NCBI GenBank assembly: GCA_045660605.1
Contig: JAZREC010000007.1
Coordinates: forward strand, 1 to 26,834
Direction: 5' to 3'
Origin: Clostridia bacterium
GTDB lineage: Bacteria; Bacillota; Clostridia; UMGS1810
DNA: 26,834 bases
Shown here: positions 10,065-18,663 of the stretch, one piece after another
Position numbering within the stretch: position 1 is the first letter of the stretch
Layout: every line of letters starts with the position of its first letter
Notes under the pieces: model-generated
Database searches by the model: none
The model's input: only the letters and a program-made list of their open reading frames with translations
Told to the model about the DNA's origin: nothing
Program-made: the position numbers and the translations under genes

Positions 10065-10604
10065 TCAAAAATTTGGTGGTGTAGACACCCAAAGCACCGT
10101 GGCAGTTGTCTTGCCGTTATTGACAATGTGATGTGCCTGATTGGTCTTGTAATAAAAGCTCTCATGCTTTTTGACACGGTATTTATCGCTTCCAAGGTGG
10201 AGTGTAATATTTCCCGACAGAACAAAGCCGAATTCCTCGCCCTCATGCGGGTCATCAAGATACGATGTACCCCCCGGATGAAGCGTAATTATGATAGGCT
10301 CCATTGTATGCTTCTGGGAATTTGGGACTATCCAGTTGACAATGCTTTTTTCTTCTTTGTTTTCCTTAATAAAAACATCTTCCTTGGTAAATACAACATT
10401 GTTGTCCTGAGCATCGTTAAAAAAGTCCTTGAGGTCTGTGCCGAGGCACTGCAAAAGGTCTGACAGGGTGGAGATAGACGGAGATGCAAGATCACGCTCA
10501 ATCTGTGATATAAATCCCTTTGACAGCTCGCAACGGTCTGCAAGCTCCTCTTGAGTAAGATTGTTTTTTATGCGGAGTCTCTTGAGTTTACTTCCGATTT
10601 CCAT
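10065..10604 (-). CDS. XRE-family HTH plus cupin transcriptional regulator (PuuR-like)
   Basis: IGSKLKRLR...LTQEELADRCELSKGFISQIERDLASPSISTL HTH and HEGEEFGFVLSG cupin; start taken as ATG 10604. Confidence 0.9.
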   Translation of the reverse strand: MEIGSKLKRLRIKNNLTQEELADRCELSKGFISQIERDLASPSISTLSDLLQCLGTDLKDFFNDAQDNNVVFTKEDVFIKENKEEKSIVNWIVPNSQKHTMEPIIITLHPGGTSYLDDPHEGEEFGFVLSGNITLHLGSDKYRVKKHESFYYKTNQAHHIVNNGKTTATVLWVSTPPNF

Positions 10605-10739
10605 GTGGGTCAAATATCCTTCCGTTATGTGACGGCAGGGTATTTGTCGCCTCCTTTCGCTTGGCTCCGATGCCAAAAAGTTTTGAATTTTCAAATAAAA
10701 AGTTTAGTATTTGTGTTAGTTTTTATTAGTAAGGCGAAA

Positions 10740-11389: not shown

Positions 11390-11442
11390 AAAACAAAGCA
11401 AGCCAAACCATAACAAAAGCTATGATTTGGCTCTTTTTGTTT
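11390..11442 (-). terminator. Intrinsic terminator after iorB
   Basis: AGCCAAACCATA...TATGATTTGGCT stem (11401-11432) flanked by A-rich and T-rich tracts. Confidence 0.8.
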
Positions 11443-11452
11443 AATAGTGCTA

Positions 11453-12019
11453 TTATATATTGTATCCAAGTTCAAATGCCTTTAAGTTTACATCAAGAAA
11501 CTTTGGCGGTACGGTAGTCTTAATGGTTTCCACCCAGCTTTCGTAAGGGATATCGGTATTTTTTGCCATAACACCGATAAGAACCACATTGACCGCTTTG
11601 ATGTTTCCTGCCTCCTTGGCAAGAGAAAGTGCATCTACTGTCTTGATATTTGCCTTTTCGCTTATCTTCTTTTCTATATCCTTTGGATATTCCTTTGCAC
11701 CGATAATTACGGGCATGGGGTCGATATTCTGATTATTTGCTATTATCTGTCCGCCCTTTTTGAGATAAGGAAGCGCTCTGTATGCTTCAAGCATTTCAAA
11801 GGCAAGTATAATATCTGCCTCGCCCTCATCTATTATCGGAGAGTAAACCCTGTCGCCGTACTTAACATAGGTAACAACACTTCCGCCTCGCTGGCTCATG
11901 CCGTGCACCTCGCACACCTTTACATCATAGCCCTGATTTATAACTGTATTTCCGAGTATTCTGCTTGCAAGAAGTGTGCCCTGACCGCCGACACCTACAA
12001 TCATTATATTCTTTGTCAT
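11453..12019 (-). CDS. iorB: Indolepyruvate:ferredoxin oxidoreductase beta subunit
   Basis: IVGVGGQGTLLAS, EVHGMSQRGGSV, AVNVVLIG, NLKAFELG. Confidence 0.93.
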   Translation of the reverse strand: MTKNIMIVGVGGQGTLLASRILGNTVINQGYDVKVCEVHGMSQRGGSVVTYVKYGDRVYSPIIDEGEADIILAFEMLEAYRALPYLKKGGQIIANNQNIDPMPVIIGAKEYPKDIEKKISEKANIKTVDALSLAKEAGNIKAVNVVLIGVMAKNTDIPYESWVETIKTTVPPKFLDVNLKAFELGYNI

Positions 12020-12027
12020 ATTGATAT

Positions 12028-13758
12028 CTACCTCTTTTCTATTGCGTTAAAGGGACATACATTGATACAAAGTCCGCATCCGTTGCACTGTGTCTGATCT
12101 ATGATAACCTTGCCGTCCTTTACTGTGATTGCGGGACAGCCAAGCTTCATGCACATTTTGCAGTTTTTGCACTTATCGGTAATTTCGCAGTGACCCACAT
12201 ACTTTACGCTCTTAAGGAGTGCGCAGGGTCTCTGGGCTATAATTACAGACGGCTCTTCTCTCTGTGTTTCTGTCTTTACTACCTCTTCAAACTTCTTAAT
12301 GTCAAAGGGGTCGCAAACCGTAACATGCTCTATTCCGAGAGCCTTGCAGAGTGAAACAAGATTAACCTGCTTGGTCTCTTCCTTGCGGATTGTGTAGCCT
12401 GTTGTCGGATTGTCCTGATGTCCTGTCATACCTGTTATGGAGTTATCAAGAATAATTACTGTGTTGTTGCCCTTGTTGTATACAATGTCTGCAAGACCTG
12501 TAATACGCGAATGCATAAAGGTGGAACCACCGATTACGGAAACCAGCTTTTTGTTGAATTCCTCTCCTCTTGCCTTTGCCATACCATGTGCCGCGCTTAC
12601 AGAAGCACCCATGCATATTGTAGTGTCAACAGACTGAAGAGGTGCAACTGCACCGAGTGTATAACAGCCGATATCTCCCGATACCACAAGTCCGAGCTTT
12701 TTGAGTACATAGAATGTTCCTCTGTGGGGACAGCCTGCACACATTACGGGCGGACGAACGGGGATTTCTTCCTCGGCACGCTGAGAAGGCTCGCACACCT
12801 CACCGAGTACTGCTTTCTTTATCATAGACGGTGTGTATTCGCCAAGAAGTGTAAAGCACTCCTTACCGCATACAGATGCGCCTATTGACTTGCAATGTTC
12901 TTCTATTACGGGGTCTAATTCCTCTATAACATATACCTTGTCATAGTTTTTGCAAAAATCAAGAATTTTCTTCTCGGGAAGCGGATAAACCATACCGAGC
13001 TTTAAGTAATCTGCATTTTCTCCGAGTGCTTCTTTAGCATACATATATGCAATACCTGCAGTTATTACACCGATTTTTGAGCCGTTTTCTTCTATTGTAT
13101 TAAGCTCTGAGGTTTCGGCAAATTCCTTTAATGCCTTTATTCTGTCTTCGACAACTACATGTCTCTTTACCGCATTTGCAGGCATCATTACAAACTTTGA
13201 TATATCCTTTTCATAAGGCTTAAGCTCTATATTTTCTCTCTCGCCAAGTTCCACAAGGCTCTGCGAGTGGGAAACTCTTGTTGACAAGCGTATAAAACAA
13301 GGTGTGTCAAACTTTTCCGAAAGCTCAAATGCAAGCTTTGTATAATCTCTGCATTCAAGCGAGTCGCCAGGCTCGAGCATCATAATTTTTGACGCCTTTG
13401 CGTAATGTCTGGAGTCCTGCTCATTCTGTGAAGAATGCATTCCGGGGTCGTCTGCCACGCAGAACACAAGTCCTCCGTTTACTCCTGTGTAGCTTACTGT
13501 AAATACGGGGTCAGCCATAACATTAAGTCCCACATGCTTCATACAGCTCATGGCTCTTGCACCGCCTATTGATGCACCTATTGCAACCTCTGCGGCTACC
13601 TTTTCGTTAGGGGACCATTCTGCATATATTTCGGGGAATTTAACAATTTCCTCTGTGATTTCTGTACTGGGTGTGCCGGGGTATGAAGCAACCACATTTA
13701 CGCCTGCCTCGTATGCACCCTGAGCAACTGCAGCATTGCCAAGCAATAACTTTTTCAT
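12028..13758 (-). CDS. iorA: Indolepyruvate:ferredoxin oxidoreductase alpha subunit
   Basis: YPGTPSTEI, EWSPNEKVA, MKHVGLNV, DDPGMHSSQNEQD, PPVMCAGCPHR, GDIGCYTLG, C-terminal 2x[4Fe-4S] ferredoxin motifs; the TPP motif is altered (see findings). Confidence 0.93.
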   Translation of the reverse strand: MKKLLLGNAAVAQGAYEAGVNVVASYPGTPSTEITEEIVKFPEIYAEWSPNEKVAAEVAIGASIGGARAMSCMKHVGLNVMADPVFTVSYTGVNGGLVFCVADDPGMHSSQNEQDSRHYAKASKIMMLEPGDSLECRDYTKLAFELSEKFDTPCFIRLSTRVSHSQSLVELGERENIELKPYEKDISKFVMMPANAVKRHVVVEDRIKALKEFAETSELNTIEENGSKIGVITAGIAYMYAKEALGENADYLKLGMVYPLPEKKILDFCKNYDKVYVIEELDPVIEEHCKSIGASVCGKECFTLLGEYTPSMIKKAVLGEVCEPSQRAEEEIPVRPPVMCAGCPHRGTFYVLKKLGLVVSGDIGCYTLGAVAPLQSVDTTICMGASVSAAHGMAKARGEEFNKKLVSVIGGSTFMHSRITGLADIVYNKGNNTVIILDNSITGMTGHQDNPTTGYTIRKEETKQVNLVSLCKALGIEHVTVCDPFDIKKFEEVVKTETQREEPSVIIAQRPCALLKSVKYVGHCEITDKCKNCKMCMKLGCPAITVKDGKVIIDQTQCNGCGLCINVCPFNAIEKR

Positions 13759-13779
13759 ATCAATTTCCTTTCCTGTATA

Positions 13780-15417
13780 TTATTTTATTTCGTTCTGCTG
13801 TGCTACTACGCTGTCTCCGCAATAAATTTTTCTAAGCTTTGGTTTTTCTATCTTTCCTGTGGGGTTTCTCGGAACATCTGCAAATATAATCTTATGCGGT
13901 CTCTTATATCTCGGAAGCTCCAGACAGAAATCCGTCACATCATCTTCTGTGAGCTGTGTCCCCTCTTTTACCTGAATTATAGCCGCCGCTATCTCTCCAA
14001 GTCTTGCATCGGGAAGCCCTATTACTGCAACATCGCTTATAGCATCATGCTTTCTTAAAAAGTCCTCAATCTGTACGGGATAAAGGTTCTCACCGCCTGA
14101 TATTATGACATCCTTCTTTCTGTCAACAAGGTATATAAAGCCGTCGCTGTCCTCAGATGCCATATCGCCCGTATAGAGCCAGCCGTCCGCAAGAACCTCG
14201 TTTGTTGCCTTTTCGTCCTTATAATATGCTGTCATTACACCGGGACCCTTTACCGCAAGCTCACCGACTTCGCCTCTTGCGACTTCGTTTCTGTTTTCGT
14301 CTACAATCTTTGTTTCCCAGCCAAAGCCTGCTTTGCCTATTGCACCGACCTTATGCTCATTCTCAACGCCAAGATGCACGCATCCGGGTCCGATGGACTC
14401 GGAAAGACCGTAGTTTGTGTCATAAGCGTGATTTGGGAATTTACCTTTCCATCTTCTTATAAGGCTTGGCGGTACAGGCTGTGCACCTATGTGCATAAGT
14501 CTCCATCTGTCAATATCATAATCCGAAAGCTCTATTTCGCCTCTGTCTATGGAATCTAATATATCCTGCGCCCACGGAACAAGAAGCCATACGATTGTAC
14601 ACTTCTCCTCGGATACTGTCTTTAGTATCCATTCGGGCTTGATTCCCTTGAGAAGAACCGCCTTTCCTCCGACAAGGAATGAACCGAACCAGTGCATCTT
14701 TGCACCCGTATGATAGAGGGGCGGTATGCAAAGGAATACATCGTCCTTTGACTGCGAGTGGTGGTTCTGTTCTACCATAGCGGCATGTACAAGACTTCTG
14801 TGTTTATGGATTATAGCCTTTGGAAAGCCTGTTGTACCCGACGAGAAGTATATTGCAGCATCATCATCGTCTGTAAGCTTAATAGACGGGCTTTTTGACG
14901 AGCAGTACGATACAAGCTCATCATAGCTCTCTGCAAATGTCGGACAGTCCTCTCCGAGATAGAACCAAAGCTTAACCCTCTTTACCCGAGAGCAAATCTG
15001 CTCAATTCTTCCTGTAAATTCGGGTCCGAATATTATCGCATCTGCATCGGCAAGCTCGAGACAGTATTTTATTTCGTCTGCGGCATATCTGTAATTGAGC
15101 GGTACTGCCATGGCACCGGCTTTAAGTATACCGAAGTATATGGGGAGCCACTCTATGCAGTTCATAAGAAGAATTGCAACCTTATCTCCTTTTTTTATTC
15201 CTCTCGAAAGAAGAAGATTTGCAAATCTGTTTGCCTGTTTATTGAAGTCGCTCCAGGTTATTTCCTTGCGGTATGCTTCTCTGGGGTTTGCCTCGATAAG
15301 AGAATACTCTCTCCATGTCATACGGCTTTGATTTTCGTTCTTGGGATTTATCTCAACAAGACTTATGTCTGTTGGATAAAAATCTGCATTTTTCTGTAAT
15401 ATCTCTGTTATAGGCAT
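13780..15417 (-). CDS. Class I adenylate-forming acyl/aryl-CoA ligase
   Basis: YFSSGTTGFPK, YGLSES, LYTGD, DRKKDVIISGGEN, PRNPTGKI; substrate cannot be determined from sequence. Confidence 0.9.
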   Translation of the reverse strand: MPITEILQKNADFYPTDISLVEINPKNENQSRMTWREYSLIEANPREAYRKEITWSDFNKQANRFANLLLSRGIKKGDKVAILLMNCIEWLPIYFGILKAGAMAVPLNYRYAADEIKYCLELADADAIIFGPEFTGRIEQICSRVKRVKLWFYLGEDCPTFAESYDELVSYCSSKSPSIKLTDDDDAAIYFSSGTTGFPKAIIHKHRSLVHAAMVEQNHHSQSKDDVFLCIPPLYHTGAKMHWFGSFLVGGKAVLLKGIKPEWILKTVSEEKCTIVWLLVPWAQDILDSIDRGEIELSDYDIDRWRLMHIGAQPVPPSLIRRWKGKFPNHAYDTNYGLSESIGPGCVHLGVENEHKVGAIGKAGFGWETKIVDENRNEVARGEVGELAVKGPGVMTAYYKDEKATNEVLADGWLYTGDMASEDSDGFIYLVDRKKDVIISGGENLYPVQIEDFLRKHDAISDVAVIGLPDARLGEIAAAIIQVKEGTQLTEDDVTDFCLELPRYKRPHKIIFADVPRNPTGKIEKPKLRKIYCGDSVVAQQNEIK

Positions 15418-15433
15418 TATTAAAATTCCTTTC

Positions 15434-16987
15434 TTATTTACCTAGGGATTCTTTCATTGGTACTGTTACCTCTACATCATAGCAAGAGAACATCTGCTCT
15501 GTCTCTTTTGCATCGGGTTTTGGTGTAACAAAGCTTACAATCGGAAGAATAACAAGTCCTCCGAGCATTGCGATAACACCGCAGTTAATGGGCGACTGCA
15601 AAATTACAGGGAACATAGGTCTTGCGAGCATATTCGCAACCATTATAACCGAACCGAAAAGAAGACTTACCCAAACTGCTGTTCTGGTAGCTTTTTTCCA
15701 GTAGAGGCCGTAGAGGAACGGTGCAAGGAACGAGCCTGCAAGAGCACCCCACGAAATTCCCATCATGTCGGCAATCGCGCTGAGCTTATCCTTGTTAAGT
15801 GCTATAAATGCCGAAACGGCAATAAATACAACTATCAGAATTCGTAATATAAGTATCTGTTTTTTCTCGGTCATGTCCTTTATGACATGGTCTTTAATAA
15901 GGTCCAGAGCAAGAGTTGAGCTTGATGCGAGCACAAGCGACGAAAGCGTTGACATAGATGCAGAAAGCACAAGTATGATTACTACTGCTATAAGTATATC
16001 GGGAAGTGTTTCCAGCATAGTCGGAATAATTGCATCAAATCCGCCCTCAATTGAACCGTCGGGGAGGAATGTAAGTCTGTCTGTAAAGAGTCTGCCAAAG
16101 CCTCCGAGGAAGTAGCATCCGCCTGCAACAACAAGGGCAAATACAGTAGAAATTACAGTTCCTTTATTTATATCCTTCTCGCTCTTTATTGCATAGAACT
16201 TCTGCACCATCTGCGGAAGTCCCCATGTACCGAGCGATGTAAGTATTACAACAAACATAAGTCCGAGAGGGTCGGGACCGAAGAAGGAATTGAATACTCC
16301 TGGTGACATTCCCTCAGCTTCAATCTCAGCAAGCCCCTTAAGCGACTCTGTAAATCCGCCGTTTTGGGTAAGCACTGCACCTATAACCGCAACAATACCC
16401 ACAAGCATGATTACTCCCTGTATGAAGTCATTGACAGCAGTTGCCATGTAGCCTCCTGCTATAACATATATACCTGTAAGGATTGCCATTATAATAACAC
16501 AGGCTGAGTAATCAATGCCCGGAAACGCCATGGAAAACAGTCTGGAAAGACCGTTGTAAAGCGATGCGGTATACGGAATAAGAAACACAAATACAATGAG
16601 CGATGCCGCTATCTTAAGACCTGTGCTATTGTATCTTTTGCCAAAGAACTCGGGCATTGTTGAGCTTGAAAGGTGCTGAGACATAAGTCTTGTTCTTCTG
16701 CCCAGTACAATCCACGCAAGAAGAGAACCGAGTACGGCATTTCCTATACCAATCCATGTGGAAGCTATACCGAACTTCCAGCCGAACTGACCTGCATAGC
16801 CGACAAAGATTACAGCCGAAAAATAGGATGTTCCGTATGCAAACGCGGTAAGCCACGGACCCACAGAGCGTCCGCCCAGTACAAAACCGTTGACATCGGT
16901 GGAATGTTTTCTGCAATACAGTCCCACACCTATCATAACACCGAAGAAAATAACCAGCAAACTAACCTTGATAAACACAAAAACCAT
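15434..16987 (-). CDS. Sodium:solute symporter (SSS family)
   Basis: GGRSVGPWLTAFAYGTSYFSAV, MPEFFGKRY, GLPQMVQKFY, SASMSTLSS; about 13 hydrophobic segments. The true start may be GTG at 16978 because the AAAGG RBS directly abuts ATG 16987. Confidence 0.9.
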   Translation of the reverse strand: MVFVFIKVSLLVIFFGVMIGVGLYCRKHSTDVNGFVLGGRSVGPWLTAFAYGTSYFSAVIFVGYAGQFGWKFGIASTWIGIGNAVLGSLLAWIVLGRRTRLMSQHLSSSTMPEFFGKRYNSTGLKIAASLIVFVFLIPYTASLYNGLSRLFSMAFPGIDYSACVIIMAILTGIYVIAGGYMATAVNDFIQGVIMLVGIVAVIGAVLTQNGGFTESLKGLAEIEAEGMSPGVFNSFFGPDPLGLMFVVILTSLGTWGLPQMVQKFYAIKSEKDINKGTVISTVFALVVAGGCYFLGGFGRLFTDRLTFLPDGSIEGGFDAIIPTMLETLPDILIAVVIILVLSASMSTLSSLVLASSSTLALDLIKDHVIKDMTEKKQILILRILIVVFIAVSAFIALNKDKLSAIADMMGISWGALAGSFLAPFLYGLYWKKATRTAVWVSLLFGSVIMVANMLARPMFPVILQSPINCGVIAMLGGLVILPIVSFVTPKPDAKETEQMFSCYDVEVTVPMKESLGK

Positions 16988-17000
16988 CCTTTCCGGACGA

Positions 17001-17280
17001 AAAAAATCCCGTCCTCATGAAATAATCCAGAGGACGAGATATATAAACTCGTGGTACCACCTCAGTTCGCTGCAGCCTCGCGATTGCAGCCTTATCAGGT
17101 ACAAATAATACCTTAGTTCTGTGACGGGAACTCCCGTTGCAGCCTACGCAAAGCCTAAAAGCTCCTTCGGTGCACAGCTAGCGGAATGTATTCGTATATG
17201 CCGTCGTCATTGCCTCGCAGCAACCGGCAACTCTCTCGAGACTAAGAACATAACTACTTGTTTCCGTTCAACGCCTTTGG
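17001..17280 (-). ncRNA. T-box riboswitch, predicted specifier UAC (Tyr)
   Basis: Stem I with AGAGA bulge and GCUG loop; GAA-UAC-A specifier (17190-17188); AGUUCCCGUCACAGAAC stem IIA/B-like; antiterminator GAGG-UGGUACC-ACGAG/CUCGU-CCUC; competing terminator CUCGUCCUC/GAGGACGGG plus U tract. Confidence 0.95.
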
Positions 17281-17296
17281 CTATTAAATTATATCT

Positions 17297-17325
17297 ATTC
17301 TAGCACAAGACTTAACCAAAGTCAA
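17297..17325 (-). promoter_or_regulatory. Sigma-A promoter of the T-box leader
   Basis: TTGACT, 17 nt, TGn-TAGAAT on the minus strand. Confidence 0.75.
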
Positions 17326-17351: not shown

Positions 17352-18251
17352 TTATCCTGCTATATCAAAGGTTTCGTCAATATCTGACACATACACATCG
17401 TACACCTCGCTGTACTCAAGCGGATATACAAGCTCATAATAAACTATATTATCTCCCGAAAGAATACACTTGTGGTGGTAGATTATGCCGTCTCTTTCTA
17501 TTGTAACAGAGTATCTGTTATCTCCTGTTTCTGAGGAAATCTGCCTGCCCCCTATATCCTCCAGCGCCTTATCCTTAATCTGAGCTATCGTGAGAGAGGA
17601 TTTGTTTTCAAAAGAGGCTATATCCATATATGCTGCTCCGTCGTTTGAAGCATAGCGGATTTCGCCGTCATTTTCGTATACAAATTCAAATCCTGCGGGA
17701 ACATCGCATTGGTAATCGGAGCCTTTGAGCGTTTTGTACGAAAGCTCTCCGCCCTTTAGCGAAACACCTTTCTTAAACGGATACTCTCTGTCTATGCGCA
17801 CACCATAAACCTCGTCATCAACGCCCACGCTTTCGCCTTCCTTAAGCTCCTCATCTTTTTCTTCCTTTATTTTATCATCATTTGGCTTGGTATCTGTAAT
17901 ATTACTCTCTGTATCCACAGCTTTTGAAAGTGTCTCTCTCGTAAGAAGCACATATACCAATGCCAACGACATACAAACCAACGCAGTAATTAAAAAGGCT
18001 ATAACAAAGCTCTGCCATCTGCCCGTACTGCGCTTTGGCTTGGCTTCAGCTTGCTCCGTCTTTGGCTTGGACGGCGGGGTCTGTCTTACATTATTTACAG
18101 TCTCAGCCTTTCCTGTAGTTCTTACAACGGGGATTGCCATTGTTTTTTCAAGCTCTTCCGTATTGCATGCCTCATCACATACAGTTGCTCCGCACTTTGG
18201 GCAACGGAGTGTGCCTTCCTCAACAAAGAAGTTGCATTTGGGACAATTCAT
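17352..18251 (-). CDS. Zinc-ribbon single-pass membrane protein
   Basis: N-terminal CPKC...CPKC, one hydrophobic helix (FVIAFLITALVCMSLALVYVLL), acidic C-terminal domain. Confidence 0.75.
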   Translation of the reverse strand: MNCPKCNFFVEEGTLRCPKCGATVCDEACNTEELEKTMAIPVVRTTGKAETVNNVRQTPPSKPKTEQAEAKPKRSTGRWQSFVIAFLITALVCMSLALVYVLLTRETLSKAVDTESNITDTKPNDDKIKEEKDEELKEGESVGVDDEVYGVRIDREYPFKKGVSLKGGELSYKTLKGSDYQCDVPAGFEFVYENDGEIRYASNDGAAYMDIASFENKSSLTIAQIKDKALEDIGGRQISSETGDNRYSVTIERDGIIYHHKCILSGDNIVYYELVYPLEYSEVYDVYVSDIDETFDIAG

Positions 18252-18264
18252 TACCTCACCTCCG

Positions 18265-18663
18265 TTAGTTCAGAGGCTTACCGCATCCCTGACAGAATGA
18301 GGCACCTATAGTATTACTCTGTCCGCAACTGCACGAAAAGGTCATGTCCTTTGCCTTGTTCATACCTGCATCGAGCTCTTCAATTGCAAGATTATTCTCT
18401 TTGATTTGTTCATTTCTAACGGCGATTTCTTCTACAAAAGGCATAAATTCATCTCTTGGGATATCTCCCTCGCCGTTTAATGCACACCAATTGTATAGCT
18501 TTGTTCCTATGTTTACGGAAATATCTTTTATCTCTTTTTCGAGTTTTTTGTTATTTGTGATAAGTGCTGACTTTTTGATAACTGTTTTTGAACCTACGCT
18601 TACAGCCTGAGCACCTTTTTCTAATCCGAGTTTTAATTTGCCAAAAATTTCTGCCATTGACAT
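18265..18663 (-). CDS. Coiled-coil protein with C-terminal zinc ribbon
   Basis: CSCG...FCQGCG at the C terminus; AAGGAGG RBS. Confidence 0.75.
   Translation of the reverse strand: MSMAEIFGKLKLGLEKGAQAVSVGSKTVIKKSALITNNKKLEKEIKDISVNIGTKLYNWCALNGEGDIPRDEFMPFVEEIAVRNEQIKENNLAIEELDAGMNKAKDMTFSCSCGQSNTIGASFCQGCGKPLN

Follow-up and report, generated by a model that had tools for sequence, protein, structure and literature searches.

We describe here a four-gene operon on the minus strand of a 26,834-nt stretch of DNA from a Clostridia bacterium (contig JAZREC010000007.1 of assembly GCA_045660605.1, contig 7 in our numbering; hereafter the window), in which a tyrosine-specific transcriptional T-box controls the genes for a sodium:solute symporter (SSS), an AMP-forming CoA ligase of the ANL superfamily, and the two subunits of an indolepyruvate:ferredoxin oxidoreductase (IOR). 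T-boxes switch genes on when the cognate tRNA is uncharged, and the genes of this operon are therefore expected to serve the supply of tyrosine. We consider it probable that they do so anabolically, by a route from 4-hydroxyphenylacetate to tyrosine. Only 4-hydroxyphenylacetate could be turned into tyrosine by a single carboxylation followed by a single transamination. In addition, an AMP-forming ligase costs two ATP equivalents and is suited to supplying an acyl-CoA for reductive carboxylation by IOR. The combination of induction on tyrosine starvation with an ATP-consuming ligase beside IOR argues for synthesis rather than fermentation. This lends support to a sequence-only reading of the window, which had proposed that the operon is biosynthetic rather than fermentative.

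The same reading had named the UAC specifier, the UGGU bulge, one promoter, four co-oriented genes and a closing terminator, and our analysis confirmed this organization in every respect. The leader (17027-17280, minus strand) matches the Rfam covariance model for class I transcriptional T-boxes (RF00230) over its full length (model positions 1-219), with 109.5 bits (gathering score 93; E 1.1e-23). The specifier codon in its structural alignment is UAC (Tyr) at 17190-17188, preceded by GAA at 17193-17191 and followed by A at 17187, so that the Stem I specifier loop reads GAA-UAC-A at 17193-17187 with a purine after the codon. The register appears sound because the same aligned register yields CUC (Leu) in the T-box that precedes a leuA-like gene on contig 20. 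Downstream in the leader, the antiterminator including the T-box sequence (17030-17063, minus strand; -8.2 kcal/mol) carries a 7-nt bulge, UGGUACC, whose UGGU (17059-17056, minus strand) is fit for pairing with an ACCA 3′ end (A73). The leader terminator (17000-17036, minus strand) consists of a stem at 17036-17010 and then seven U (17006-17000), with a fold of -20.3 kcal/mol and a z of -5.08, and it competes with the antiterminator, whose 3′ arm shares nucleotides with the 5′ arm of the terminator. Transcription would begin at a sigma-70-type promoter (17297-17325, minus strand) with TTGACT, a 17-nt spacer and a TG-extended TAGAAT (10/12 matches), and end at an operon terminator (11400-11433, minus strand) formed by a 15-pair hairpin (11433-11400) and a T-rich tail. 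The T-box itself is in no way unusual for its class, sharing with tyrosine class I leaders of the Bacillus subtilis tyrS type the full model, GAA-UAC, the UGGU bulge and the competing hairpins. What differs is the set of genes under control, which is tyrS, tyrosine biosynthesis or an NhaC-type carrier in the known cases and a CoA ligase, an IOR and an SSS protein in this operon.

The comparative analysis ties the tyrosine signal to the ligase. A close set of 80 loci was drawn from different species, with orthologues that share 75-98% identity with the operon ligase, and a distant set comprised 40 further loci from other families of the class, in which the T-box-bearing members have ligases at 67-75% identity. 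In the close set, an upstream T-box was found in 39 loci and the aligned specifier was UAC in 39/39. In the distant set, a T-box precedes the ligase or an SSS-ligase pair in 12/40 loci, again with UAC in 12/12, and cmscan placed two of the 12 leaders above the gathering score. This survey of specifiers across orthologous operons, which the sequence-only reading had suggested, thus returned UAC in 51/51 leaders ahead of ligase orthologues. The leader lies directly before the ligase in 23 of these and before an SSS-ligase pair in 28, and in three or more loci (L097, L105 and L106 among them) the switch controls the ligase alone. Because 23/51 leaders precede the ligase directly, some of them with the ligase alone, the tyrosine signal belongs to the ligase itself. 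An alternative, in which the T-box is there for the transporter alone and the enzymes are passengers, was rejected on account of the same 23 leaders. When 13 leaders ahead of SSS genes are added, all 64 align with UAC as the specifier (six re-aligned by cmscan), and a search of these 64 orthologous leaders for Phe or Trp specifiers found none.

The ligase is also associated with IOR. In the close set, iorAB follows the ligase in approximately 64/76 loci where the contig permits judgement, and an SSS orthologue lies ahead of the ligase in roughly half. Across 399 sampled Clostridia genomes, a ligase orthologue is present in 190, nearly all at 67-90% identity, and IorA is present in 183/190 ligase-positive genomes (~96%) versus 119/209 ligase-negative ones; for one of the ligase-positive genomes without IorA, a contig end accounts for the absence. 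We regard this co-occurrence as a trend rather than a statistic. Close homologues come from ruminant gut and rumen metagenome-assembled genomes labelled Clostridia, Acutalibacteraceae, Oscillospiraceae or Congzhengia.

The ligase (545 aa; 13780-15417, minus strand; PF00501, PF13193) has the complete set of ANL core motifs A3, A5, A7 and A8 and the A10 catalytic lysine, namely SSGTTGFPK at residue 192, YGLSE at 336, TGD at 416, RKKD at 433 and PRNPTGK at 516. Its best NCBIfam model is a long-chain fatty-acid subfamily (NF004837), at 423.8 against a cut-off of 476, and all 25 of the 25 curated ligase models among the matches listed fall below their cut-offs. No match to the PaaK-type ligase (TIGR02155) was found genome-wide at E <= 1e-20, the operon ligase included, which upholds the earlier view that this is not a PaaK-type enzyme. 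Its closest solved relatives are FadD13, FadD5, feruloyl-CoA synthetase, malonyl-CoA synthetase and 4-coumarate ligases. FadD13 of Mycobacterium tuberculosis (PDB 3r44; E 2.6e-73) and the plant 4-coumarate-CoA ligase (PDB 5bsm; E ~1e-53) have the fold family and the core motifs in common with the operon ligase; both are distant and act on other substrates, and nothing about the acyl pocket of the operon ligase's family can be learned from them. A different comparison comes from related genomes in which a PaaK-type phenylacetate-CoA ligase sits beside iorAB, and is likewise an AMP-forming aryl-acid ligase adjoining IOR; the PaaK type is ~430 aa long, whereas the operon enzyme is a 545-aa FadD/4CL-like ANL protein. 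As judged from these sequence comparisons, the operon ligase represents an uncharacterised, highly conserved family (orthologues 67-98% identical), outside the characterised ligase subfamilies and not of the PaaK type. Its conserved link to tyrosine makes it most likely a 4-hydroxyphenylacetate-CoA ligase, a predicted activity that differs from its public names, 'acyl-CoA ligase' and 'long-chain-fatty-acid--CoA ligase LcfB'.

Downstream of the ligase, IorA (576 aa; 12028-13758, minus strand) exceeds the equivalog cut-off of its model (TIGR03336, 731.6 > 650.9) and contains thiamine pyrophosphate and 4Fe-4S domains (PF02775, PF01855, Fer4). IorB (188 aa; 11453-12019, minus strand) likewise passes its own (NF005325, 294.2 > 230; PF01558). 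The operon IorA is the sole IorA/IOR in the genome. IOR enzymes have a wide substrate range, and a solved-structure search with IorA returned distant relatives only, which did not help on substrate. From the T-box logic and the AMP-forming ligase, we infer that IOR works in the reductive direction. In the mechanism we propose, uncharged tRNA-Tyr would pair through its GUA anticodon with the UAC specifier, and its free ACCA end would pair with the UGGU bulge and stabilise the antiterminator, allowing RNA polymerase to pass the leader terminator and transcribe the four genes. The ligase would then spend ATP on joining CoA to an arylacetate, most likely 4-hydroxyphenylacetate, and IorAB, running reductively with reduced ferredoxin and CO2, would carboxylate the resulting thioester to 4-hydroxyphenylpyruvate. 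One of the class I/II aminotransferases of the genome, of which there are four, could convert 4-hydroxyphenylpyruvate to tyrosine, and the symporter would bring in either tyrosine itself or the acid.

The chemistry of this proposed route is not new. Reportedly, Kristensen described the formation of tyrosine from 4-hydroxyphenylacetate in rumen contents in 1974. Methanococcus maripaludis has a second aromatic amino-acid pathway fed by aryl acids through IOR (Porat et al., as cited in PMC4162585). As proposed for our operon, that pathway combines IorAB with arylacetate activation to form an aryl-pyruvate, and it runs alongside a de novo route. The system described here differs in being bacterial, in its riboswitch control, in the use of a dedicated ANL-type ligase and in regulation by tyrosine only; moreover, the M. 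maripaludis pathway was established by labelling and genetics, whereas ours is deduced from sequence. Rumen bacteria also form Phe, Ile and Val from phenylacetate, 2-methylbutyrate and isobutyrate, respectively (Allison and co-workers, 1960s, in the reference list of PMC7356843). These cases share with ours the ruminant-gut habitat and the same reductive carboxylation chemistry, and the Allison-era studies named neither genes nor regulation. A survey of T-box regulons does not mention an oxidoreductase or a CoA enzyme (PMC2494555). Our literature search found no paper that links a T-box to hydroxyphenylacetate or to indolepyruvate ferredoxin oxidoreductase, and none that treats acid-to-amino-acid ligases at the level of genes; on the conversion of 4-hydroxyphenylacetate to tyrosine in the rumen it returned nothing relevant. 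What appears new is the wiring, in which a tyrosine T-box is placed on an ANL-type ligase and IOR, and not the biochemical pathway, which is old.

The rest of the genome sets this operon beside an endogenous tyrosine route. In the assembly (1.49 Mb, 306 contigs, 94% complete), contig 19 carries EPSP synthase (aroA, cut by the contig end), chorismate synthase (aroC), shikimate dehydrogenase (aroE) and dehydroquinase (aroQ), and contig 277 carries chorismate mutase-prephenate dehydratase, prephenate dehydrogenase (TyrA) and 3-deoxy-D-arabino-heptulosonate 7-phosphate (DAHP) synthase. The sequence-only reading had proposed a check for missing aro and tyrA genes, and none of these seven was missing. 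We therefore rejected tyrosine auxotrophy as an explanation, given the near-complete shikimate/TyrA route kept in the genome, and conclude that a salvage route would supplement de novo synthesis. A 564-aa ANL-type ligase, 25% identical to the operon ligase, is encoded directly upstream of the chorismate mutase-prephenate dehydratase, prephenate dehydrogenase and DAHP synthase genes (L135:1906-7017, contig 277).

Four T-boxes were found in this genome, three of them ahead of acid-CoA ligases. Besides the operon leader, an Ile (AUC) T-box on contig 146 (L134:1503-4121) lies ahead of a 770-aa fusion of helix-turn-helix (HTH), cupin and acyl-CoA synthetase domains, whose ligase part resembles MbcS (best model, 470 bits, below cut-off); by its sequence, this protein probably activates 2-methylbutyrate for isoleucine. 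On contig 277, a further T-box (L135:1-1412) has GUA followed by G at the aligned specifier position, a probable Val specifier with an alternative register possible, and precedes an HTH-cupin-synthetase paralogue that is 51% identical to the 770-aa fusion and cut by the contig end. By analogy, Ile and probable Val T-boxes before acyl-CoA synthetases would follow the same logic for branched-chain acids. The fourth T-box, with CUC (Leu), stands on contig 20 (L001:43-1741) ahead of a 462-aa 2-isopropylmalate-synthase-like gene that falls below all leuA equivalog cut-offs. The tyrS gene (L157:257-1459, contig 235) has no T-box match in the genome-wide search, with only 256 nt assembled upstream, so that its leader may have been cut.

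Several observations weigh against the tyrosine-salvage reading or limit its support. First, the genome apparently makes tyrosine de novo and thus does not require salvage, and no tRNA-Tyr is among the 12 tRNA genes of an assembly rated 94% complete. Second, owing to an extra U (GAAUUAC), the specifier of 5/64 leaders could be read as either UUA or UAC. Third, a T-box is missing from approximately 35/74 assessable close operons, which indicates that the switch is optional; a scan with Rfam of 12 close operons without an nhmmer T-box match identified no known RNA family. Fourth, in the distant set iorAB adjoins the ligase in only 13/40 loci and is usually unlinked, and the genes downstream where iorAB is not adjacent to the ligase are heterogeneous, with no aminotransferase or tyrosine gene. 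The co-occurrence of ligase and IorA, moreover, was counted by eye from two long tables of genomes whose kin are not independent. The nearest characterised relatives of the ligase act on fatty-acyl, feruloyl/4-coumarate, malonyl and o-succinylbenzoate substrates, and none is an arylacetate ligase. Finally, metatranscriptome contigs from three gut runs of one study are 95-99% identical to the locus, with one RNA-library contig covering 16771-17063, from the T-box sequence across the leader terminator into the SSS gene, and three further contigs bridging the ligase/iorA junction; at low depth and with DNA carry-over possible, they are a weak hint of expression only.

The symporter may carry either tyrosine or 4-hydroxyphenylacetate. 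The SSS protein (15434-16987, minus strand; PF00474, 196 bits) is 517 aa long when read from ATG 16987, and 514 aa from the in-frame GTG at 16978, which is the likelier start because ATG 16987 falls within the GGAAAGGA ribosome-binding site. The sequence-only reading had cast it as an importer of 4-hydroxyphenylacetate, giving a linear four-gene pathway in which the ligase activates the imported acid. This version draws on the proximity of the two genes, which are 16 nt apart in the window and whose orthologues (SSS at >=67% identity) adjoin each other in approximately 41/60 genomes with both positions readable, as well as on the presence of carboxylate carriers within the SSS family, since PanF, MctC and ActP models match. 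However, the protein passes only the superfamily model (TIGR00813, 188.6 > 184), and among the equivalogs it scores best against PutP (208 < 515) and PanF (162 < 328), with only 65 bits for MctC (cut-off 670) and 40-47 bits for the ActP models (cut-offs of 750 or more). A solved-structure search with the SSS protein returned distant relatives only and gave no help on substrate.

Stand-alone copies of the symporter also speak against the linear version. Among 20 fetched loci where the SSS gene lies apart from the ligase, 13 have their own T-box, with UAC in 13/13 and four confirmed by cmscan, and at these loci a terminator follows the SSS gene, which makes it a single-gene unit. Four of these lone loci belong to one genus without a ligase orthologue (best match 36% over 150 residues); its genomes each have two PaaK-type ligases, one of them adjoining IorA. 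By the usual rule for carriers under T-box control (PMC2494555), a symporter alone behind a tyrosine T-box would be assigned tyrosine as its substrate. We found no specific support for the earlier assignment and think the linear four-gene version somewhat less probable than its alternatives taken together; tyrosine is at least as probable a substrate as 4-hydroxyphenylacetate, and we consider the two about equally likely. In one complete 4.3-Mb genome (G358), 2.4 Mb separate the ligase gene from the SSS gene, each behind its own tyrosine T-box (L097:4161-4420 and L150:1680-1946, respectively), and the two leaders are near-duplicates, which suggests that the switch was duplicated within that genome.

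An alternative to a tyrosine-specific route is a general salvage of aromatic acids, in which phenylacetate, indoleacetate and 4-hydroxyphenylacetate are used alike and tRNA-Tyr acts as a sentinel for shortage of aromatic amino acids. The broad substrate range of IOR is well established and would allow this (Mai and Adams, 1994, in the reference list of PMC13768988). Furthermore, with one IOR and no PaaK-type ligase in the genome, any salvage of Phe or Trp would have to use these genes. However, one would expect a shared system to have taken up other specifiers at least now and then, and the 64 leaders held neither a Phe nor a Trp codon. In addition, the separate PaaK-type ligase beside IOR in other genomes suggests a division of labour between ligases. 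We therefore regard general salvage as unlikely, and retain the anabolic, tyrosine-directed reading.

A fermentative, oxidative IOR that degrades aromatic 2-oxoacids, with the ligase in an unrelated role such as fatty-acid activation, would fit the original description of the enzyme from peptide fermentation (as referenced in PMC13768988) and the long-chain name and best model of the ligase family, but is highly improbable given that a T-box induces on amino-acid scarcity, when a catabolic operon would need the reverse response, that the T-box lies directly before the ligase in 23 loci, that the long-chain model falls short of its cut-off, and that an AMP-forming ligase would waste the energy conserved by fermentation.

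The operon is compact. The genes run on the minus strand in the order SSS symporter, ANL-type CoA ligase, iorA and iorB. They are separated by 16, 21 and 8 nt, and a separate Shine-Dalgarno sequence precedes the ligase, iorA and iorB genes. Two genes close upstream of the promoter, of 299 aa and 132 aa (17352-18663, minus strand), matched no Pfam or NCBIfam family except for a weak zinc-ribbon. Beyond the operon terminator, a stand-alone HTH-cupin regulator (10065-10694, minus strand), PuuR-like but below cut-off, sits upstream of a potABCD-like polyamine ATP-binding cassette transporter; its two domains are the same as those fused to acyl-CoA synthetases elsewhere in the genome.

The formation of amino acids from fermentation acids in the rumen has been known since the 1960s, and its genes and control have never been assigned. 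Here, a riboswitch that can be read from sequence ties a ligase family to tyrosine supply, and so yields a substrate prediction for a gene present in nearly half of the sampled Clostridia genomes. In its full form, our proposal is that this family is a dedicated 4-hydroxyphenylacetate-CoA ligase committing the acid to tyrosine via IOR, that IOR in many gut and rumen Clostridia is largely anabolic, and that the co-regulated SSS proteins form a new family of tyrosine (or arylacetate) carriers; we judge the chances that this whole proposal holds to be evenly balanced. The model is testable at the bench, since cultured carriers of the ligase exist, including Ruminiclostridium herbifermentans (WP_137695950.1), Thermoclostridium stercorarium (AGC68658.1) and Petroclostridium sp. 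X23 (WHH58609.1). Our findings argue for IOR, an enzyme usually annotated as catabolic, running synthetically in these organisms, which would bear on models of the nitrogen economy of the gut and rumen and on the fate of 4-hydroxyphenylacetate, the precursor of p-cresol.

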